NCBI GenBank assembly: GCA_964642015.1
Contig: CAZXLF010000003.1
Span: forward strand, 228,204 to 292,203
Origin: an uncultured Planctomycetia bacterium
GTDB lineage: Bacteria; Omnitrophota; Gorgyraeia; 2-02-FULL-51-18
Direction of reading: 5' to 3'
DNA: 64,000 nt
The notes under the pieces were generated by a model, which was given only the letters and a program-made list of their open reading frames with translations, searched no databases and had not been told where the DNA came from. The translations under genes were made by a program, and so were the position numbers. Positions 6,518-20,006 of this stretch are shown piece after piece. Within the stretch, counting starts at the first letter, position 1. Each line of letters starts with the position of its first letter.

Positions 6518-7492
6518 TCATATCTCCTGACCTTCAATCGTGCCCATTTCCTTGAACCGCACATGATAATCATGCCTGACTAAATAAATGATACCGCCGA
6601 TCAAGCTTAATAAAAAAAGAAGCGCAAGCCACAGGATCCCGATCGCAGCCGCGTATTCCCTGCCCAGATACGGTGTAAGAATTTTGATGTAAGCCCATTC
6701 ACGCACGCCCAAGCCGCCCAAAGAAGGCATCATGCTGATCAAATGAACGACCGGCACCAAAAGAAAGAAATAAATGGCGTTCGTGTGAGAACCTAGCGCC
6801 AGCGACAAGATATAAAGCACAAGGATATTCGCGCTTTGGCCGATAATGGATAAAAGCATCGCATTCACGATCAAGATCTTATGGTCTTTAAATTTATGGA
6901 GTCCATCGTATATCTTGCGCATCTTGGAACCCAGCTTCAGATAGTTCAACAAAATCTCGATGAATTGAAAACGTCTTGCAATGTTCCTATTGAAAAGTAG
7001 GATAAAAAAAACAATCGAAAAAACAAGAAATGAATAAACTATGATCGGCACTTTTGGGTCCTGTATCTTCTTAAGAAAAAAAAGGAGGCTGATGCTTGGG
7101 ATCATGATGAACGTGAAAAGTCCAAATATCCTGTCCATCAACACGGATGTAACCGACTTGACCGGCTCACCTGTGATGCGCGCTGCGGACATCGCTTTCA
7201 CGATATCTCCGCCGACCGACGTAGGCAGGAAATTATTAAAGAAAGACCCGACGAATGTTAGATTAGAAGCATCCCAAAACTTGATCGCGATACCTTCCGC
7301 CTCGAATATCATCTGAAGTCGTTTCGCCATGAGAAGCACCGTTAAAAGAAAGAGCACCACGCCAAAAACTAAAAGCTTGCGGTTCATATTATGAAGAACC
7401 TGAGATATCCTGGGGATATCTTCTCTCACGCACCAGAAAAGAAGGCCTATAAAAAAAAGACTTATCAAGGTCCTTAAGATCATTTTTCTCAT
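6518..7492 (-). CDS. Integral membrane protein of the MprF-TM/flippase-like family (lysylphosphatidylglycerol-synthase TM-region homolog)
   Basis: 324 aa, polytopic. [21 protein letters not shown] and C-terminal GGLGVRE motifs are typical of the UPF0104/LPG_synthase_TM family. Confidence 0.6.
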
Positions 7493-7540: not shown

Positions 7541-8539
7541 CTAGTCCTGCTGATTTCTCAGGATCTCAGCGGAAAGTTCGGGAGGGGTCGGATTCACATA
7601 AAAGCCGGTCCCCCATTCAAAGCCGGCCACCTGCGTCAGATGCGGAATGATCTCAATATGCCAATGATAGCTCTGACGGTCATTCGCCTGCATCGGTAAT
7701 GAATGGATCATAAAATTATACGAAGGATCTTTTAGGCCTTTCTTTAATTTTGCCAATGTCTTTTTCAGGACACGCGCCAAAGATTGGATCTGACCGTCCG
7801 TAATGGCGTCAAAGTCCGCTTCGTGAAACTTCGGCATGATCCACATCTCAAAAGGAAACCGGGACACGAACGGCGCAAAAGATATGAAATCGCCATCCTC
7901 CAATATCGTCAACTTCTTCTCAGCACGTTCTTGATTCAGCATATCGCAAAAAATACATCGATCCGTAAATTCAAAATGTTTGAGCGCTCCTTTCAATTCC
8001 CCCAAAACCCTTGAAGGAACGATCGGTAAAGCGATAAGCTGAGAATGCGGATGCTCTAAGCTGGCGCCGGCCGCTGCTCCATAGTTTTTAAATATCAGTG
8101 TGTATTTAAAGCGGTTATCTTTTCTCAGATCCAAGCAGCGGTCGCGATAAGCCTTTAATATAAGCTCGACCTGATCATCGGATAAACCCGAGATCTCCGT
8201 GTCGTGTTCCGGATTCTCAATGATCACTTCATGCGCGCCAAAACCGCCGATCTTGTCATAAATACCGTAAGCGTATTTTTCGGTGCTTTCTTCGATGCGG
8301 AGCGCAGGAAATTTATTGGGGACCACCCGAACCTGCCAGCCGGCGGATGATTTAGAACCGCTTTTTCGTCCGTAAGAAATGATCTCATGCGGCGTCATCC
8401 CTTCATTGCCGGGACAAAAAGGGCATGTCTTGCTGGACTTGTGATTCCCGTCCGACTCAAACGAATCGGCCGCACGCGGGTTCTCAATATTAACGATTAC
8501 CCAGCGACTGGTAATGGGATCTTTACGAAGCTGGGGCAT
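7541..8539 (-). CDS. GalT-like HIT-family nucleotidyltransferase/phosphorylase (galactose-1-phosphate uridylyltransferase-like), catalytic motif intact
   Basis: CPFCPGNE Zn knuckle, GAHEVIIE, LEHPHSQLIA (the HPH nucleophile motif) and C-terminal FEWGTGFYVNPTPPE. Confidence 0.75.
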   Translation of the reverse strand: MPQLRKDPITSRWVIVNIENPRAADSFESDGNHKSSKTCPFCPGNEGMTPHEIISYGRKSGSKSSAGWQVRVVPNKFPALRIEESTEKYAYGIYDKIGGFGAHEVIIENPEHDTEISGLSDDQVELILKAYRDRCLDLRKDNRFKYTLIFKNYGAAAGASLEHPHSQLIALPIVPSRVLGELKGALKHFEFTDRCIFCDMLNQERAEKKLTILEDGDFISFAPFVSRFPFEMWIMPKFHEADFDAITDGQIQSLARVLKKTLAKLKKGLKDPSYNFMIHSLPMQANDRQSYHWHIEIIPHLTQVAGFEWGTGFYVNPTPPELSAEILRNQQD

Positions 8540-9560
8540 TGGTTTCCCTTAAAAGTTGGGCTGCATCTTCCGGAGGCGTCGGATTAATATAAATTCCGGT
8601 ACCCCATTCGAATCCCGCATCGCGGGCAAGTCTCGGGGATATTTGGATATACCAGTGATAGTCTTCTTCTATCGTCTTCCAATAACCTTCTTTTTTCTTG
8701 TGCCGATAAGGCGCTGTGTGCAGGATCATGTTATAAGGAGGGTCGTCCAATATGATCTTTAGTTTCGATAAACATTCTTTTAAAATCGATGCAAGATCCC
8801 CGTAATCCGTCGATTCGAGCTTTCCAAAATCAGCACAATGCTTCTTGGGTAGGATCCAAGTCTCGAACGGAGACCGTGATGCGAACGGACAATACGCAAA
8901 AAAAGATCTATTCTGAGCCACGATCCGCGATCCATCCTGCGATTCTTGTCTTAAAATATCGCAAAAGACACATCGTTCACGCCGATCAAAATAATTCTTG
9001 GCCGAGACCAACTCTTCTTTCACCCGCTTTGGAGTGATTGGTGTCGCGATGAGCTGTGACCTTGCATGGCGGATCACATCGCGCGCCGAACCAAAGATCA
9101 ATCCGTGATTCTTAAAAAGAAGCGCGTATTTAAAACGCGGGTCCTTTTCAAGATCATTTATACGCTGAATATACGCCTGGATCACCAATTTGATATTTTC
9201 CACGCTTAATTCGTCCAAGCCGTGTTTGTGCCGAGGATGCTCGATAATAATTTCGTGCGTGCCGACACCCTGCATGAGGTCATAGATCCCTGAACCGAAC
9301 CGGTCAAAATTGTTTTCATCCAATAAGATCGGGACCTTACTCTTAATAACCCGGACCTGCCAGCCGCTGTCATTCGCCGAAGTACCCGGCTTACGGATCG
9401 CAAATATCTCTTGTGTGGTCTCATATTCTCTTCCTTCACAAAACGGGCAATCGTGTTCTTCGGCGACAGCTTTCACTTTAACCTCTACAGGGCGTCTGGA
9501 TCTTTCTGTGGAAATGATCGTCCAATAACCAACGACGGGGTCTCTTCTCAGTTCAGGCAT
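8523..9560 (-). CDS. GalT-like HIT-family paralog with degenerate active site (HPH replaced by HAR)
   Basis: CPFCEGRE, GTHEIIIE and FEWGTGIYINPTPPE are conserved, but the motif reads IRHARSQLIA instead of EHPHSQLIA. I place the start at the internal Met MPELRRDP, which parallels MPQLRKDP of the neighbouring paralog; the ORF track extends to 9656. Confidence 0.7.
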   Translation of the reverse strand: MPELRRDPVVGYWTIISTERSRRPVEVKVKAVAEEHDCPFCEGREYETTQEIFAIRKPGTSANDSGWQVRVIKSKVPILLDENNFDRFGSGIYDLMQGVGTHEIIIEHPRHKHGLDELSVENIKLVIQAYIQRINDLEKDPRFKYALLFKNHGLIFGSARDVIRHARSQLIATPITPKRVKEELVSAKNYFDRRERCVFCDILRQESQDGSRIVAQNRSFFAYCPFASRSPFETWILPKKHCADFGKLESTDYGDLASILKECLSKLKIILDDPPYNMILHTAPYRHKKKEGYWKTIEEDYHWYIQISPRLARDAGFEWGTGIYINPTPPEDAAQLLRETNAPAS

Positions 9561-10869
9561 TTTGCCCTCTATTTCCGTCCAAAAGGTATAAAAGATCGGA
9601 TGGATTGATCGTGCCAACAATCTTATTGTTCTTGTCCTGGATAATAATAACCTCACATTTTGTTTCTTTGAATTTTTTCACCACATCGGCAACTGTCGCA
9701 TCTTTAGAGATCACACTAAAATCTTTCTTCGACACATCAACAGCCGGCTGATCTAATTCTTTCACGGTAAGATTGGGCACGGCCAGTTTTTCAAGCTTCC
9801 GTACATTAATGAGTCGGCGGTTGATGTACTCATAAAACTGTGTCGACAAGATCCTTTTGAAACTCACCGGTAAAGCCGCAATGGGTCGCCCCTCGATAAA
9901 ATCAAGATGAGATTTGAACGCGCAGGATTGTGAGCGTTGATCGATCGACAAAAGGTATCTCAATGAACTGTCCGGCACCATGTGCTCTTCGGCTTCCGGG
10001 ATCGCCGCAAGTGATGCCAACTCATACACATCTTCCATTGAGATCTGAAGATCTTTAAAACCTCTGCCGATCTGGAACGAAAGCGCTCCATCCTGGTCGC
10101 GATAAACCGGTGCATATTTCTCCAATGTGTCTATCGCATCGGCCAAAAACACTCCAAGCGCAACATCCGCGTTATATAAGATCCCCGCCATGATGAAAGC
10201 GGCATCATCCGATTGTCCAGGACCTAACCGATGGCGGATGTAAAAATAACGCTGTGTTTTCGGATCCACATATCCTTCCGTGTCCACGATCAACCCCTTC
10301 TTATGATACTCATCTATTTTATCCTCATGGGCATCGTGAGCCAATCTTTCACCGTCAAGATTCATATCGAGCATTGTCTTCACATCAATGATGTAACATC
10401 GACCGCCGCCTATTTTAGTCTGATAAAGTTTCTCGGCCTCTTTTCGAATATCCGGATTATCACGCAATCCTCCCATGTAAAGCCCGCGCAAAATGTCTCT
10501 GGCATTCACGCGGCGTTCCTGAAAAAGCCGTATTCCCAGGATGGGATCCCCTTTGGAATTCAATAATTTGTCATGTTTCTCGCCATTCATGGCAGCTGCC
10601 ACAAAATCCATGATGTCATCGATGATCGCCTGGCGTTTTTCTTTGACCTCTTCAGTGTTACGTTCAAGCGCCCGCACAACATCATCGATCGTTGTGTTCA
10701 CATAGGTCTTTTTATCAAAAACTCCTGAGCCGTTATGTGCCCGGCCTTCCAAAGATTGAATGAATAACAAATCCTGGATTTCGGGAGTGGTGTCGAGATG
10801 CTCGTATGAAGCGAGAACTTCGTAATCCGCCTGGATAAGCTCCTTCGGAGCTACTGAATGTAGATACAT
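9553..10869 (-). CDS. Uncharacterized 438-aa protein with C-terminal CBS domain
   Basis: No recognisable catalytic family. The C-terminal 60 aa (ATVADVVKKFKETKCEVIIIQDKNNKIVGTINPSDLLYLL) form a CBS motif. Translationally coupled to the GalT-like pair. Confidence 0.5.
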   Translation of the reverse strand: MYLHSVAPKELIQADYEVLASYEHLDTTPEIQDLLFIQSLEGRAHNGSGVFDKKTYVNTTIDDVVRALERNTEEVKEKRQAIIDDIMDFVAAAMNGEKHDKLLNSKGDPILGIRLFQERRVNARDILRGLYMGGLRDNPDIRKEAEKLYQTKIGGGRCYIIDVKTMLDMNLDGERLAHDAHEDKIDEYHKKGLIVDTEGYVDPKTQRYFYIRHRLGPGQSDDAAFIMAGILYNADVALGVFLADAIDTLEKYAPVYRDQDGALSFQIGRGFKDLQISMEDVYELASLAAIPEAEEHMVPDSSLRYLLSIDQRSQSCAFKSHLDFIEGRPIAALPVSFKRILSTQFYEYINRRLINVRKLEKLAVPNLTVKELDQPAVDVSKKDFSVISKDATVADVVKKFKETKCEVIIIQDKNNKIVGTINPSDLLYLLDGNRGQNA

Positions 10870-10898
10870 AAGCCGCTAATTATAACATGGGTGTCTTT

Positions 10899-11837
10899 TT
10901 ATTCAAGAACTTGGCCTTCTTTTAAAACAAAACCTTTCAAAAATTCATGGACATCCAGAGGTTTTTTTCCCTCAAGCTGCAATTGCTTCACGGAGATCAC
11001 CCCATCCTTTGTGACGACATCTATGCCATTCTGCTGAGAAGAACGCAGAATCGTGCCATCCGGAACATTGGCAGGCCTCTGTTCGCCGGTCTGCACTGCG
11101 CCCAATATCAGCAATCTCTTACCTTCATAAAACGCGTATGATTTCGGCCAAGATTTAAGCGCGCGGATGTGATTAACGACCTGCGCGGCTGGACGGCTCC
11201 ATAAAATGTGACCGTCTTCTTTAGTGATCTTCCTGGCATAACTGGCATGTTCTTCTTTTTGGGGCGCAAAAACAGCCTTGCCGCGCTCTATTTGCGCGAT
11301 CGCATCAAGAAGCGCCTGCGCTCCGAGCTCGCTTAACTTTCTTTCAAGAGACACAATATCATCTTCGGGCATGATCGGCGTTTTTTTCTGCAATAAAATA
11401 TCTCCTGTGTCCAATTTTTCTGTCATCCGCATGATGGTAACACCCGTTTCCGGATCCCCATTCATCATTGCCCAATGAATAGGTGCGGCTCCGCGGTAAC
11501 GCGGCAGCAAAGATGAATGCACATTCAATGCGGTGATCTTCGGAACTTCAAGCAATTCCCTGCTTAAAATAAGACCGAAAGAAATGACGACGAAAATATC
11601 CGCGCCAAAACTACGCAGCGTCGCCGGCAAATGTTCAGGATTTTTTTTAGCTATCTCAAGATAAGGCAGGTCATTTTTTTGAGCCCATGCTTTGACAGGA
11701 GAAGCTTTGAACTTGAGCTCGCGCCCTTGCGGTTTGTCAGGCGTGGTGACAATGCTTAATAACTGATGCGTGCTTTGCTTCAAAGCATCCAACGACAGAA
11801 TGCCGAAAGAACTTGTTCCAAAAAAAATTATTTTCAT
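10899..11837 (-). CDS. fmt: Methionyl-tRNA formyltransferase
   Basis: MKIIFFGTSSFG and the HSSLLPRYRGAAPIHWA formyltransferase SLLP motif. Start placed at the internal Met. Confidence 0.9.
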   Translation of the reverse strand: MKIIFFGTSSFGILSLDALKQSTHQLLSIVTTPDKPQGRELKFKASPVKAWAQKNDLPYLEIAKKNPEHLPATLRSFGADIFVVISFGLILSRELLEVPKITALNVHSSLLPRYRGAAPIHWAMMNGDPETGVTIMRMTEKLDTGDILLQKKTPIMPEDDIVSLERKLSELGAQALLDAIAQIERGKAVFAPQKEEHASYARKITKEDGHILWSRPAAQVVNHIRALKSWPKSYAFYEGKRLLILGAVQTGEQRPANVPDGTILRSSQQNGIDVVTKDGVISVKQLQLEGKKPLDVHEFLKGFVLKEGQVLE

Positions 11838-14442: not shown

Positions 14443-15135
14443 TTATAAAATCCCGAGTTCCTTCATGATCAGCTGCGCATCCTGCCAGACGAGCTTCTTA
14501 TCGTCCGGGTTCCTTAAAAGGTACGCCGGATGGAAAGTGGGCATGAATTTTATTCCGTGCCAGTCAAAAAATTTTCCACGAAGACGTGAGATCGGCTCCT
14601 CTGTGCGTAGCAGAGTTTGTGCGGCGAATTTTCCCAACGCGCAAATAACTTGAGGCTTAATGATCTCGATCTGTCTCATCAGGATCGGCTGGCAAGTTAC
14701 GATCTCCGTCGGCAAAGGATTGCGGTTGTTGGGCGGGCGGCATTTGAGGCAATTCGCGATATAAACATCCTCTCTTTTAAGTTTCATCGCAATAATGATC
14801 TTTGTTAAAAGCTGACCCGCGGCTCCGACGAACGGCTGTCCTTGTTGGTCTTCATCAAATCCCGGCGCTTCACCGACGAACATCAGCCTGGCATCCGGAT
14901 TACCGCTTCCAAAAACAAGCTTTGTTCTTGTATTAGACAGTTCACACATAACACAATTCTGATATTCTTTCCTCAACACCTCTAACAAATTTTTTTTGTC
15001 ACTCAACGCCGGAGAATTTGACTGAGCTGTGGGAACTTGAGACGGATCTTTAAAAGTCTTGGGGATCTCCTTTAAACCGAAAGACCTTTCGGTTTCAAGA
15101 AATTGCTTTATCTGTTTATCCAAAGTATCGGTCAT
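14443..15135 (-). CDS. Uracil-DNA glycosylase, family 4
   Basis: CVMCELS and [27 protein letters not shown] are canonical family-4 UDG motifs. Confidence 0.85.
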
Positions 15136-16262
15136 GTTGTGTAACGAGAAACCAGTTGCGAAATTTTTTTGGCAGCATCGGGCTTGGACATTCGAAGTAC
15201 ACCTTGCCTCATTGATTCCAATTGCTGAGGAGACTCCGCAAGCATCGATATTTGCCGCGCGATCTCGTCCAATGAACCGGCAATAAATCCTGCTCCATAT
15301 TTTTTAACACAATCGGCGTTTCTGGTCTCTTGCCCGGGAATCGAATCAAAAAGAATTATAGGTTTACCCTGCGAAAAGCTTTCCGTGATCGTCAAGCCGC
15401 CACCCTTACCTATTACCACATCGCAGGCAGCCATCAATTCATTCATGTTATTCACGAAGCCATACACTTTAAGCAGAGGCTGCTTTTGCGCTCTTTGTTC
15501 TAAATGCTCAAAAAGGTTTTGGTTCGTACCGCAAACCGCAAGAATTTGTACAGGCTTGTTAAGCTCAAGCAGTTTTTTTACCATATTTTCCATCGCGCCT
15601 ATCCCCGCACCGCCACTCGTGATCAGTATCGTGAACGCTGAGAGATCAAGCGACAATTTTGAGCGCGCTTCTTCCAAGGAAAGACCTGTTAAAAATTTTT
15701 TTTCAACCGGTATTCCCAAGACCTCTATCTTTTCCGCAGGTATGCCGAGTTTTACAAGTCCTATCTTGGTTTCCGGAAGTGCCACCACATAAGAGTCGAC
15801 TTCAGCCGCCGTCCAAAAATGATGTGGTAAGTAATCGGTAACCACGGTTATCAACCTTGATTTTATCCACCCCTTGCTTTTTAAAAAACTCACGATCTCC
15901 GTAGCCAAAAAGTGCGTCGAAATAATAACGGAAGGGTGTTCTTTTTGAATGAATCGTTGAAGCGGCCGGCCGGCCGTGCCGTTGATAAATCTTCTCAGGC
16001 GCCGCATCAACGCGTAAACCAGCGGGATATCCATTCCGAAATAAAAAAAGCCCCAAAGCCACGGCAGATATTTTATCTGGGTATAATAAACTTTACGATA
16101 TAAATGCCCCCAGAAAGGCGGAATGATCTCAAGCGTATCGAATGATCCCGCCAAGGTACCGGGCGCCAACTCCTGATAAGCTTCCCCTATCGCCTTGGCG
16201 GCTTTTTCATGCCCATGGCCGGCGGAAGCAAACAAGATCAGGACCTTTTTTTCACGATCCAT
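15132..16262 (-). CDS. Diacylglycerol glycosyltransferase (MGDG-synthase/UgtP-like, GT28)
   Basis: VLILFASAGHGHEKAAKAIGEA is the MGDG-synthase N-domain signature. C-terminal GT28 domain. Size is 376 aa. Confidence 0.7.
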   Translation of the reverse strand: MDREKKVLILFASAGHGHEKAAKAIGEAYQELAPGTLAGSFDTLEIIPPFWGHLYRKVYYTQIKYLPWLWGFFYFGMDIPLVYALMRRLRRFINGTAGRPLQRFIQKEHPSVIISTHFLATEIVSFLKSKGWIKSRLITVVTDYLPHHFWTAAEVDSYVVALPETKIGLVKLGIPAEKIEVLGIPVEKKFLTGLSLEEARSKLSLDLSAFTILITSGGAGIGAMENMVKKLLELNKPVQILAVCGTNQNLFEHLEQRAQKQPLLKVYGFVNNMNELMAACDVVIGKGGGLTITESFSQGKPIILFDSIPGQETRNADCVKKYGAGFIAGSLDEIARQISMLAESPQQLESMRQGVLRMSKPDAAKKISQLVSRYTT

Positions 16263-16843
16263 CGCGTGGCCTCCAATAAATTCTTTTTTACCATATCAGG
16301 TTTCGGTTCAAAATTCTTGAGATCCTTTTTTTTAGTCCTACCGGAGAGTACGAGCATTGACTGGCAGCCGAGATTTTTTGCGGCCTGCACGTCTTCTTTG
16401 GAATCGCCAATGAAAAAAACTTCCCTCAGATCAAACCGCCTGCCACGCAACGCCTTTTTAAAAAGAACCACATTAGGTTTTTTGCATTGGCACCGATCAC
16501 TCGTTTGATGAGGGCAATAATAAACTCCGTGTATCTCCGCGCCTACCTTGCCCATTTCCCGGAACATCTTTTCGGTGATCCTGGACAATTCTCTCAACGT
16601 AATATATTCGTGAGATATGCATCCCTGATTAGAGATCACGTTCACTTCAAAGCCGGCTTGATTCAAATGTTTCACGGCATGAGCAGCGCCGGATAAACAT
16701 TGAAAATCCTCAAGCCGCGTCAAATAAAAACCTACGCCCGGAAAACGGTTAATGACTCCGTCGCGGTCAATGAAGACGATCTTTTTTAGAGGTCTTTTCG
16801 GACGGTTTTTAACAATGATCGGTCTGAGTTTCTGCTTCAGCAT
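16238..16843 (-). CDS. gmhB: D-glycero-D-manno-heptose 1,7-bisphosphate phosphatase (HAD, histidinol-phosphatase-like)
   Basis: IVFIDRDGVIN HAD motif I, the Zn-binding CPHQTSDRCQCKKP typical of GmhB, and FFIGDSKEDVQAA motif. Confidence 0.85.
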   Translation of the reverse strand: MLKQKLRPIIVKNRPKRPLKKIVFIDRDGVINRFPGVGFYLTRLEDFQCLSGAAHAVKHLNQAGFEVNVISNQGCISHEYITLRELSRITEKMFREMGKVGAEIHGVYYCPHQTSDRCQCKKPNVVLFKKALRGRRFDLREVFFIGDSKEDVQAAKNLGCQSMLVLSGRTKKKDLKNFEPKPDMVKKNLLEATRWIVKKRS

Positions 16844-17862
16844 TTCACAAGGCCTTGCATCACTTCTTTTGCGGCGGAAAATATCACTTCAGCGCTCATG
16901 TCCTTCATGCATTGTTCATCGATCGGACAGATCTTTTTATAACAAGGCGCGCATTCGATTTCAGAAACGATCTTTCTTCCCCGCCCGTAAAGCTCTATTT
17001 CTGAGGCGCAAGTGGAGGCAAAATAAGCCACAACGGGTACTTTGACCGCGATCGCAATATGCATCGCCGTCGTATCACCGGACACAATGATGTCGCATGC
17101 CTGAACGATCGCCGCGAAATCCTGAATTGAATGGCTTCCGGTGTTTATCACGGGATATTTTGAGAGCCGCGCGATCTCGGCATTTCTTTGGATCTCATCC
17201 TGACCGCCCAAAAGAAACACCGTCGCACCCATTTCTTTGGAAAATTTGGCGATCAATTCCAAAAACGTCGAAATAGGCAGTCTTTTGCCTGCGAAACGCT
17301 TACCACTGCCTGTGTTAAGACCAACGATCAATTCGACACCTTTCAGATCCGCGCCCAAACTGCTCAAATGTTTTTCAATGCGCTCCGAACTTTCTTGACT
17401 AACCTCAAAAATATACTCCTCTTTCTGGAACTTTAGTCCAAGCTGCTCGAATGCGATCTCCTGATATGTCTTTTTGTTTTGTCTAAATTTCAACTTATCG
17501 TCAATGCCCAGGCGGTAAGCATAATCACTTAAAGCGTCAAGCGCACACAAATCCCCGCTTTTAGACCTCCCAAACCCCATGCGTTTTTTGGATGGAATGG
17601 TCATAATCGCATCAAGCGCTTCGGGCTCTTTATCCAAATTCACGGACAGGTCAAATTCCTGCTTCTTTAATTCCGCTATATTTGCGAGTGAACAATCTAT
17701 AAGAGAATCGATCAACGGATTTTTTTCAAGCACAGGTCTGCACGGGGCTTCCACAAGCCAGTGGATACGTGAATCGGGATATTTTTTTTTAAGCTGAGTC
17801 AGTAACGGTGTCGTGCGCAACACGTCTCCCATCGCGCCAAGCTTGACGATCAGGATCTTCAT
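16837..17862 (-). CDS. ADP-heptose:LPS heptosyltransferase (GT9)
   Basis: MKILIVKLGAMGDVLRTTPLL GT9 N-terminus and C-terminal GDTTAMHIAIA. Start placed at the internal Met (ATGA overlap with the next gene); the ORF track extends to 17919. Confidence 0.8.
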   Translation of the reverse strand: MKILIVKLGAMGDVLRTTPLLTQLKKKYPDSRIHWLVEAPCRPVLEKNPLIDSLIDCSLANIAELKKQEFDLSVNLDKEPEALDAIMTIPSKKRMGFGRSKSGDLCALDALSDYAYRLGIDDKLKFRQNKKTYQEIAFEQLGLKFQKEEYIFEVSQESSERIEKHLSSLGADLKGVELIVGLNTGSGKRFAGKRLPISTFLELIAKFSKEMGATVFLLGGQDEIQRNAEIARLSKYPVINTGSHSIQDFAAIVQACDIIVSGDTTAMHIAIAVKVPVVAYFASTCASEIELYGRGRKIVSEIECAPCYKKICPIDEQCMKDMSAEVIFSAAKEVMQGLVKC

Positions 17863-18644
17863 GCGGATTTGGCCTCGGATACTTCCCAATATTTCACCCA
17901 GTTCAAGAAATGCACCCATGCAAAAAGAACAGAGAACATAAAACCATAGATCCCGTCCAAAAAACCTTTCTTCCTGATGTAAAATTTAAAAAAACGCTTG
18001 AGCGGTTTCTCCTTCAAATTATACCAGACCTCTTTCTCCGGCAAACGCCCCGCTTCCTCAAATTTTGCCTTCCCTTCCCTTGTTGAATACCCGTTGTGGC
18101 GGTTCACGAATTGCTTGATCGAAGCGAACGGGTAATGTTCTACCGGGGCCTCGAGTTTTCCGATCGAGCCGTCAACGATCAATGTCTCATGGATCACACC
18201 TTCGTAATGTGCTTTGTCCTTCCTAAAAAAATGCAGACTATAATGATACCAGCCGCCGTGACACATCCAATGCCCTAGAAAAAAATTTTTCTTTCGGAAT
18301 TCGAACGCGCTATGTGGAGTGCCGTTCTCCATGATTTTAAGGACCGCTTTTTTAAACTCCGGTGTCGCTCGCTCATCCGGGTCGATGTGAAAGCACCAAT
18401 CAGAGCTCACCTTGCTGATGCCTAGGTTTCTTTCAGTGCAAAAACGGTAGCCGTCCCACCGGTTCTGAAATATACGATCTGTATAACGTTTACAGATTTC
18501 AATGGTCCGGTCCGTGCTGAATCCGTCAATCACGACGATCTCATCGACCCATCCGGCAACACTTTTCAGCGTGCCCTCGATCAGATCCTCGCAATTTTTT
18601 GTCATAATAACCGCCGAGACTGTTTCGCATTTTTTTGGTTCCAT
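17859..18644 (-). CDS. GT2 glycosyltransferase, WaaE/KdtX-like (paralog 1 of 3)
   Basis: VSAVIMTKNCEDLIEGTLKSVAGWVDEIVVIDGFSTDRTIEI, HIDPDE DxD motif and a C-terminal YWE motif shared with ORFs 22780-23568 and 34645-35424. Confidence 0.75.
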   Translation of the reverse strand: MEPKKCETVSAVIMTKNCEDLIEGTLKSVAGWVDEIVVIDGFSTDRTIEICKRYTDRIFQNRWDGYRFCTERNLGISKVSSDWCFHIDPDERATPEFKKAVLKIMENGTPHSAFEFRKKNFFLGHWMCHGGWYHYSLHFFRKDKAHYEGVIHETLIVDGSIGKLEAPVEHYPFASIKQFVNRHNGYSTREGKAKFEEAGRLPEKEVWYNLKEKPLKRFFKFYIRKKGFLDGIYGFMFSVLFAWVHFLNWVKYWEVSEAKSA

Positions 18645-18647
18645 GGT

Positions 18648-20006
18648 TCACGCTTCTTCTGCGCTTTTTAACTTAAATATAAAAAGAGCTGATAAATAAA
18701 CCGCCCAGGCGCCTATGTATAAAAATGAAAGCCGTTTAAAATAAGCCAAAACACCGGCCATCGAATAAAGCAAAAGCGCAAGAGGCGATAACGGCACCTG
18801 GCTCAGGATCAGGAACGGCATGGCCCAAGAAAAATGATGCCCGTAAAACGGGATCGCGTAACTCGCATAAAGGGCAAGGAACATCCAAAGAGCGACCCGG
18901 AATATAAAAACTGGATTGACCTTAGGGCGAAGCCAAAGATAGACCAAAGCGGAAAGCGCGTTGACAGCAAAAAAGATCATGAAACCTTTTTCCACTTGGG
19001 TCGTGCTTATCAAAAACCCTAACTTATGTAATAAACTATAAAAAGCGTAAGGGACTGAATTCGTATAAAACCAACCCTTGAAAGTCGAAAAATACATCAA
19101 AGTGTCTCTGCCTATCCAAAAAGGCGCGTAACACGCGACTGTCAAGGCCAATACAGCGACAGCGCTCTTAAAAATATCCCAGATCTTATTTGTTTTTCCG
19201 GGCAGCGACTTCAAAAATAAAATACCCACAACGGCCAGCAAGATCAGTGAAGTGAACTTCACAAGCGCTCCCATGGCCGCCGCTGCCAGACTCATCGTCA
19301 TACTCTGATTCAACATGGCATAAATAGCTAAAAGCATCCAAAAAACCATGATGATGTCATTATGACCATCCACCAAATGGTGGCTCCAGATATTGGGATT
19401 AAGAATAAAAGCTTGTGTGAGCGTATGAGCTTTTTGCGGCGCCACAAGCAACGCGATCTTGAAGAATATAAAACCTGACGCGGTCAAAAAACCAAGAAGC
19501 ATGACCTTCTGCATAAAGCACGCCAACGCAATGCTCTGCCCGAAAAACGTCGGCATGATCCATTCTACAAGAGCCCAAGCCGGCCCGTAATTTTCAGGGG
19601 TATGAATCCACACGCTTTTGGAAAAAAATTTGTCAGATGGGAATTCGATTGACGCATGTGCGTAAGGATTTTTGTGATAAACGCCGAATATCCTTCCGCG
19701 GATCAGATATTCATATAAGTCTCCGGAGAATACCGGCGGAACGACGCAAAGTAAAAGTGCTATCGCAAGAAACATCAGCCAAAGCTTCTTCGGCATGATC
19801 TCTTCTGTTTTTCTCGTGATCAATAACGTATATGCGATGCCGAGATTCAAGAAGATCGCGTTGATGATCAAGCGCGCCAACGGTTTCTGCGGAGGCAAGT
19901 TCGAATCCCCGGCAACGTGCATCGCCCATGGAAAAAGACACATCAACGCAAGACTCAGACCGTAGTACACTGCGATGTTTTTCAGACGAAAACGGTTCGC
20001 GAGCAT
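18648..20006 (-). CDS. Polytopic membrane protein, putative GT-C superfamily glycosyltransferase (DUF2029/GT87-like)
   Basis: 452 aa, about 12 hydrophobic segments, first periplasmic loop SGDLYEYLIRGRIFG (acidic loop motif). Confidence 0.5.
   Translation of the reverse strand: MLANRFRLKNIAVYYGLSLALMCLFPWAMHVAGDSNLPPQKPLARLIINAIFLNLGIAYTLLITRKTEEIMPKKLWLMFLAIALLLCVVPPVFSGDLYEYLIRGRIFGVYHKNPYAHASIEFPSDKFFSKSVWIHTPENYGPAWALVEWIMPTFFGQSIALACFMQKVMLLGFLTASGFIFFKIALLVAPQKAHTLTQAFILNPNIWSHHLVDGHNDIIMVFWMLLAIYAMLNQSMTMSLAAAAMGALVKFTSLILLAVVGILFLKSLPGKTNKIWDIFKSAVAVLALTVACYAPFWIGRDTLMYFSTFKGWFYTNSVPYAFYSLLHKLGFLISTTQVEKGFMIFFAVNALSALVYLWLRPKVNPVFIFRVALWMFLALYASYAIPFYGHHFSWAMPFLILSQVPLSPLALLLYSMAGVLAYFKRLSFLYIGAWAVYLSALFIFKLKSAEEA

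Follow-up and report, generated by a model that had tools for sequence, protein, structure and literature searches.

The window analysed here is a 64,000-nucleotide stretch of contig CAZXLF010000003.1 from an uncultured Planctomycetia bacterium, which GTDB places in the Omnitrophota. It contains two adjacent genes, A and B, whose products have the fold of galactose-1-phosphate uridylyltransferase (GalT) in the histidine triad (HIT) superfamily. Gene A (7541..8539, minus strand) encodes a 332-residue protein resembling ADP-glucose phosphorylase, with an intact HxHxQ motif, and is the predicted catalytic subunit. Gene B, immediately upstream (8523..9560, minus strand), encodes 345 residues from its ATG, carries arginine at the nucleophile position, and is the predicted non-catalytic partner. 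The 3' end of B, including its stop codon, overlaps the start of A by 17 nucleotides (8523..8539, minus strand), with AAGGGA located 5 nucleotides before the ATG of A. The start of B in turn overlaps the stop of the preceding gene, gene X, by 8 nucleotides (ATGCCTGA; 9553..9560, minus strand), with GAGGG 5 nucleotides upstream. These two overlaps, each with a Shine-Dalgarno-like sequence, suggest translational coupling. The real start of B is the ATG at 9560, as a database protein identical to it (P0001, 100%) begins MPELR, and so does every ortholog. The mechanical open reading frame for B runs 32 codons further (9561-9656, minus strand) to a GTG at 9656 inside gene X.

The initial annotation of this DNA, made from the sequence alone, had described the two genes as overlapping tandem GalT-like HIT paralogs, and this description held. 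A and B aligned over 339 residues with 42% identity (E 1e-100), and both exceeded the gathering cut-offs of the Pfam families GalP_UDP_transf (PF01087; 57.4 bits for A and 41.5 for B, cut-off 22.1) and GalP_UDP_tr_C (PF02744; 33.6 and 41.5 bits, cut-off 29.2). On translation, the quoted motifs CPFC and GFEWGTG.Y.NPTPPE were read in both proteins, whereas HEIIIE, also quoted for both, was found in B only, the corresponding segment of A being HEVIIE. The statement that such pairs are generally annotated only as domains of unknown function (DUFs) was true of some orthologs, which are named DUF4931 or hypothetical proteins; others are named galactose-1-phosphate uridylyltransferase or UDPglucose--hexose-1-phosphate uridylyltransferase.

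A and B are both fold members of class I GalT (branch III of the HIT superfamily); A has the nucleophilic HxHxQ signature of the class and B lacks it. With HMMER, the top match in the PDB for both proteins was Arabidopsis thaliana At5g18200 (1Z84; E 3.2e-70 for A and 2.4e-61 for B), while the matches to E. coli and human GalT were far weaker (E 1e-12 to 1e-22). At5g18200 has been reported to be an ADP-Glc phosphorylase and not a GALT (PMC6329318). These proteins share two half-barrel HIT domains and a C-terminal GFE.GTG motif with At5g18200 (PDB 1Z84, 1ZWJ, 2H39), and its catalytic zinc site (C63, C66, H133, H184) has counterparts in both. Its second Cys2His2 site (C216, C219, H255, H310) corresponds to C195, C198, H239, and H292 of A and to C197, C200, H241, and H302 of B, all of which are invariant. 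The HxHxQ motif of At5g18200 is intact in A, whereas B is without the nucleophilic histidine. Moreover, At5g18200 consists of two copies of one active subunit, with the active sites between them, whereas the Omnitrophota have two diverged genes, one of them without the nucleophile.

E. coli and human GalT (PDB 1HXP, 1HXQ, 1GUP, 5IN3) resemble the pair in fold and in the equivalents of zinc ligands C52/C55/H115/H164, Q168, N153, and Y316/E317, and their HPH nucleophile motif is found in A. However, these enzymes are homodimers with two active sites, and the pair is much more distant from them and is without Leloir gene context. The iron-site ligands of E. coli GalT are matched in A and in bacterial single-copy relatives (E181, H279, H294, E296); At5g18200 lacks two of them (F312, Q314). 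In B, two residues matching these iron ligands are changed in the subclade of the window only, His to Tyr (Y304) and Glu to Gln (Q306). A and its single-copy bacterial relatives thus carry the ligand sets of both the second zinc of At5g18200 and the iron of E. coli GalT, and judging from these residues may bind three metals per subunit. Both A and B also matched the DUF4921/DUF4931 families (e.g., Bacillus cereus BCE0241, PDB 4QVU), which are separate and uncharacterised branches although some orthologs of the pair bear the name DUF4931, but these matches were partial and scored lower than the GalT-domain matches; the DUF4921 score of B was 23.6, under the gathering cut-off of 28.5. By these sequence comparisons, the nearest characterised relative of A and B is the At5g18200 ADP-glucose phosphorylase rather than Leloir GalT.

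Residues were mapped using HMMER alignments to 1Z84 and a MAFFT alignment of 186 sequences, and the motifs were checked by translation. The active-site motif of A reads E162-H163-P164-H165-S166-Q167 (EHPHSQ; 8039..8056, minus strand), with H163 as zinc ligand and H165 as nucleophile (H164 and H166 in E. coli GalT, H184 and H186 in At5g18200). A keeps every family-invariant catalytic and metal residue, and its departures from the consensus of outgroup and single-copy sequences are conservative and peripheral. The motif of B reads R164-H165-A166-R167-S168-Q169 (RHARSQ; 9054..9071, minus strand), in which the zinc histidine and the glutamine are kept and the nucleophile is arginine. R167 of B shared a column with At5g18200 H186, E. 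coli H166, and H165 of A, and H165 of B fell on the zinc-binding first histidine. Both motifs were therefore present as the initial annotation had given them, EHPHSQ in the downstream and RHARSQ in the upstream copy, and since the two segments align, its claim that the nucleophilic histidine of the upstream copy is replaced by arginine stands. The accompanying change of proline to alanine is real but not meaningful, because this site varies among P, S, A, and T throughout the family.

Beyond what had been described before, B showed further changes around the same site. A loop at S158-A-R-D-V-I163 (9072..9089, minus strand) contains an insertion of 2-3 residues and replaces a family-invariant Ala-Ser, of which the serine corresponds to E. 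coli Ser161; in the B of the window the insertion is of 3 residues (S-ARD-VI) and lies immediately before the motif. Ser74 of B (9339..9341, minus strand) takes the place of a family-invariant asparagine (N75 of A, N94 of At5g18200, N77 of E. coli GalT), the E. coli residue having a nucleoside-binding role. Serine was present here in 94% of B orthologs, and the A orthologs and outgroups had asparagine throughout (100%). In addition, the residue preceding the zinc histidine of B was Arg or Lys in 137 of 145 orthologs, giving a second basic residue, and position 181 was Lys in 96%. E. coli S161 is known to bind the alpha-phosphate (bioRxiv 10.64898/2026.09.13.751320).

Other family-invariant positions were kept in B, including both Cys2His2 zinc sites, N151 (E. 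coli N153), and Q169 (E. coli Q168). The zinc ligands of the catalytic site (C39, C42, H112, and H163 in A; C38, C41, H111, and H165 in B) were conserved to 98% or more in the A and B clades alike. The C-terminal motif of B, G316-F-E-W-G-T-G322 (8595..8615, minus strand), aligned to G315-Y316-E317 of E. coli GalT, and its residues G316, F317, E318, G320, and G322 were 100% conserved in B, A, and the outgroups. In dimers of class I GalT and At5g18200, the neighbouring subunit completes the sugar pocket (F312', V314', Y316', and E317' in E. coli; bioRxiv 10.64898/2026.09.13.751320). Taken together with this role of the neighbouring subunit, the residue states suggest that the losses of B are one-sided: the residues of its own site (equivalents of E. 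coli H166, S161, and N77) are gone, and those of the fold and of the site of the partner are kept.

The substitution in B was highly conserved. Among 145 orthologs (50-100% identity), 142 (98%) had Arg at the nucleophile position, two had His, and one had Cys, giving the motif [RK]HxRSQ. The reading frame was intact in more than 150 orthologs in the same range of identity. Within one common set of 25 genomes, pairwise identity averaged 0.574 in A and 0.569 in B (r = 0.88). These results indicate, at the level of sequence, that B is a selected variant and not a decaying copy. The loss of the catalytic histidine along with two further active-site residues would also fit a redundant duplicate drifting to loss, in effect an incipient pseudogene that serves no function, and sporadic stand-alone members without the nucleophile do exist elsewhere in the family (e.g., P0271). 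However, the intact frames, a rate equal to that of A, the fixation of arginine, the invariant zinc ligands and trans-acting motif, and the retention of the pair across Omnitrophota lineages in which all surroundings are rearranged argue against such decay, and this explanation appears close to refuted.

The association of the two genes was examined in two sets of loci. When the GTDB species representatives were scanned with B, 39 loci encoding a full-length relative were obtained, and these were combined with four others (L001-L004). A lay directly downstream of B in all 28 loci (25 distinct) that had a B-type gene and enough downstream sequence; the B-type gene carried Arg in 27 of these and Cys in one (L027). 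All 28 are labelled Omnitrophota, or are mislabelled as Planctomycetia or Eisenbacteria with the same synteny. Several GTDB representative metagenome-assembled genomes (MAGs) with Omnitrophota-type synteny and B proteins 54-73% identical (L005, L007, L009-L011, L014, L026, L027, and L013) have records headed 'uncultured Planctomycetia bacterium' or 'Candidatus Eisenbacteria', and these taxonomic labels are probably loose or wrong. By contrast, 14 loci of WOR-3, Desulfobulbaceae, Myxococcota, and others in the same scan had a single canonical HxHSQ gene, with no further copy in the vicinity. When metagenomes were scanned using other nucleophile-less variants as seeds, 80 loci were obtained. Eight were tandem pairs, all with an Arg-type gene upstream and a His-type gene downstream, and the remaining 72 were single-copy loci, canonical except for three with an unreadable motif. 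Together with the 14 loci above, ~84 loci outside the Omnitrophota thus had a lone His-type gene. The tandem pair is thus a specific feature of Omnitrophota and not a general habit of the family, and it persists in Omnitrophota lineages in which gene X and the downstream gene F are no longer adjacent.

Loss of the nucleophile as such was more widespread. Approximately 10% of the closest family cluster representatives were without the nucleophilic histidine, with Y, V, I, C, S, L, or R instead (P0246, P0260, P0261, P0266, P0271, P0287, P0296, P0298, P0299, P0303, P0315, P0326, and P0346, together with locus L128). These tended to lose the equivalents of N75, N152, S160, and Q167, and the zinc ligands and the GFE motif were kept. 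The proposal that nucleophile-less copies are paired with an active copy throughout the family was not supported: P0271 (HSISE), the one such lineage examined, stands alone beside ackA (acetate kinase); its nearest relative, P0391, is canonical and has the same ackA context. The losses in the wider family look like sporadic events rather than paired subunits. Since P0271 stands alone and the metagenome scan gave only Arg-type pairs and canonical singles, systematic pairing is established for the Arg type only.

We also compared the gene context of the pair and its relatives. In deeper Omnitrophota lineages, the gene order was fmt-B-A-gap-glgA-GH57, fmt-B-A-gap-GH57-GH57, or B-A-gap-pgk-tpiA, and seven of the eight metagenome pairs were followed by gap, three of them also with pgk. 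Among the ~72 loci of single-copy relatives, glgA was found within 3.5 kb in 17 and GH57 in 6. Natural fusions joined a GalT-like domain to a GT5 glycogen/starch synthase (P0275, 814 aa) or to GH57 (P0257, 875 aa; P0359, 858 aa). Another protein of 871 aa (P0251) contained two GalT-like domains in one chain, both with His, which makes it probable that non-identical domains of the family pair with each other. Given the context with glgA, GH57, and gap, the fusions, the kinship with At5g18200, the failure of the model PRK11720, and the lack of gal genes, the GalT-like family of the pair would belong to NDP-glucose and alpha-glucan metabolism (NDP, nucleoside diphosphate), and our best guess from these comparisons for the reaction of A is ADP-glucose phosphorolysis.

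These observations also bear on whether the pair is a genuine Leloir galactose-1-phosphate uridylyltransferase (EC 2.7.7.12), with or without a partner subunit. The database names of orthologs agree with this assignment, and both proteins slightly exceeded the cut-off of TIGR00209 (galT_1; 108 bits for A and 111 for B against 102.1). However, the equivalog model PRK11720 was missed widely (128 and 126.5 bits against 448), and E. coli and human GalT were much weaker matches than At5g18200. No Pfam family suggesting galK, galE, or galM was present in the 15.5-kb locus around the pair (10 kb on the X side and 4.4 kb on the A side), and in eight related Omnitrophota loci whose neighbouring genes were read, none of the three adjoined the pair. 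With glgA, GH57, and gap as the context and fusion partners, a Leloir enzyme is very unlikely.

From the homology, substitutions, conservation, strict pairing, and gene-context links, we infer that A and B form a heterodimer of GalT type with one catalytic site, and we put the probability of this at roughly 60%. A heterodimer of a catalytic subunit and a pseudo-enzyme had been one of the proposals of the initial annotation; it is favoured here by comparative evidence, namely the pairing, the equal rate, and the asymmetric residue loss. A would act by a covalent ping-pong mechanism through His165, with zinc on His163, as is typical of class I GalT and ADP-glucose phosphorylase. NDP-hexose and A would give a nucleoside monophosphate (NMP)-enzyme intermediate and hexose-1-phosphate, and the NMP group would then be passed to phosphate or to another hexose-1-phosphate. 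B would be unable to form the covalent intermediate and would have been kept because no active site of a class I enzyme is complete without a second subunit; it would give its conserved C-terminal GFE..G.G segment to the sugar pocket of A. Besides its single catalytic site, the complex would thus contain a pseudo-site that is remodelled and strongly cationic (R/K164, R167, Q169, N151, and zinc). The enzyme would most likely work where alpha-glucan metabolism meets glycolysis, with ADP-glucose or a different NDP-glucose as its substrate.

Several observations weigh against this model. The trans-acting GFE motif of A was also 100% conserved, which a dead site in B does not predict; its invariance fits a pseudo-site that binds a ligand, additional A2 homodimers, or a structural role of the motif. 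Some members of the B clade lack the arginine: P0034 and P0037 (L004, 662-1702) have RH[SA]HSQ, P0255, on the B branch in a neighbour-joining (NJ) tree, has RHPHSQ, and L027 (5995-7047) has RHSCSQ. In L004 the gene keeps its place between X and A, and in L027 it is still followed by A. These His and Cys orthologs indicate that Arg is not absolutely required in B and that activity of some B proteins is possible. The loop before the motif is altered as well in P0034 and P0037, from SARDVI to TSEVAI, which hints that these residues are coupled. In phylogeny, NJ never made A and B sisters, and B joined other fast-evolving sequences. As for the pathway, no glycogen or glycolysis gene was detected in the 64-kb window by tblastn. 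A general statement that the pair replaces GlgC was rejected, since GlgC is annotated in most Omnitrophota MAGs of Ace Lake (supplement of PMC8542988).

The NJ tree placed A in a clade (68 of 100 bootstraps) beside single-copy enzymes of Desulfobulbaceae and Myxococcota. A recent duplication specific to Omnitrophota was unsupported as the origin of the pair, as monophyly of A and B was recovered in 0 of 100 bootstraps. The tree is compatible with B having arisen by an old duplication or by transfer, or its position may be an artefact of long-branch attraction.

The nature of the replacement in B raises the further question of whether B functions independently of A, as an enzyme or a binding protein that is probably homodimeric and lies beside A only because the two share a pathway. 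Arg167 and Arg/Lys164 would then support non-covalent phosphoryl or nucleotidyl transfer, or would bind a phosphorylated ligand. A specific conserved arginine in place of random residues, the second basic residue gained nearby, and the retention of Q169, N151, and the zinc site are in line with such a function, as is the intact GFE motif both in A, where in a heterodimer it would line the B pocket, and in B, as a B2 dimer would have it. However, the equivalents of Asn77 and Ser161, with their nucleotide and alpha-phosphate contacts, are gone. No HIT-family enzyme is known to function without its nucleophilic histidine, and our literature search gave none. The linkage is also tighter than ordinary pathway clustering, with A always immediately downstream in ~36 loci and the frames mostly overlapping. 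An independent function of B is therefore unlikely.

Within the heterodimer model, the former active site of B could have become an allosteric sensor for hexose phosphate or another phosphorylated metabolite, tuning the single catalytic site of A:B. This idea, which we regard as speculative and doubtful, stems from the loss of nucleotide binding and the gain of two arginines beside the glutamine, asparagine, and zinc, in a site that would face the intact sugar-binding segment of A.

In the subclade of the window, the pair is accompanied by gene X (9553..10869, minus strand), which encodes a protein of 438 aa with an N-terminal domain of ~365 residues and one C-terminal CBS motif. Its orthologs (n=40) were 57-90% identical with ~95 invariant columns, and all those with a named source were Omnitrophota. 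An AlphaFold2 model of X was confident, with a predicted local distance difference test score (pLDDT) of 86.9 and a predicted template modelling score (pTM) of 0.80; a single-sequence model (pLDDT 36) was discarded. The N-terminal ~365 residues had no match in Pfam, NCBIfam, PDB sequences, or PDB structures searched with Foldseek, the CBS part alone being recognised, and this region may be a new domain. Gene X adjoins the pair only in this subclade and is not beside it in deeper lineages. X may be a third component or regulator of the pair, and as a CBS-domain protein might take part in allosteric control within this subclade.

The gene order around the pair was priA-def-fmt-X-B-A-F-aroQ-pepP-efp. 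Gene F (6518..7492, minus strand), separated from A by a 45-nucleotide gap, encodes a flippase-like LPG_synthase_TM protein with a weak match to a model of GlcN-phosphatidylglycerol flippase. Further away, past priA and UDG (~15132-19560, minus strand), lie genes for an MGDG-synthase-like GT28 protein, a HAD hydrolase, GT9 and GT2 proteins, and an MptA_B-family protein. A link between these flanking genes of membrane-glycolipid type and sugar-nucleotide supply is possible. Just upstream of X is a promoter-like sequence, TTGAAT-16-TATAAT (10/12, with TG; 10879..10906, minus strand), a possible but weakly indicated start of an X-B-A transcript; in a promoter and terminator scan of the region, the counts of sites were at chance level and not above the expectation from shuffled sequence.

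Heteromers of active and inactive paralogs are known, as in the small and large subunits of plant ADP-glucose pyrophosphorylase and the beta and alpha subunits of PPi-dependent phosphofructokinase. There, too, one paralog of a duplicated enzyme has lost catalytic residues and is conserved, invariably accompanying its active counterpart; the surrounding pathways (glucan synthesis and glycolysis) are the same, and the degenerate site often becomes regulatory. The folds are unrelated, however, and those heteromers are biochemically demonstrated, whereas A:B is deduced from comparison. HIT/GalT-fold enzymes are textbook homodimers with covalent catalysis, and our literature search, limited in reach, found no description of an active/inactive heteromer in this fold.

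If the proposed model is correct, this phylum-wide pair of an active and a histidine-less protein would be the first heteromeric form of the HIT/GalT fold, and would provide a natural experiment on half-of-sites architecture, with one subunit needed only to complete the pocket of its partner. If the pseudo-site proved to be an allosteric sensor, the pair would be the first allosterically controlled heteromeric HIT/GalT enzyme, governing NDP-glucose turnover between glycogen and glycolysis phylum-wide. With regard to annotation, hundreds of Omnitrophota proteins named 'galactose-1-phosphate uridylyltransferase' would be unable to act alone as that enzyme, and their active partner is probably of the NDP-glucose phosphorylase type, with ties to glycogen and glycolysis instead of galactose use. 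As regards the physiology of this uncultured phylum, the pair would point to an unrecognised storage-glucan step that coexists with GlgC.

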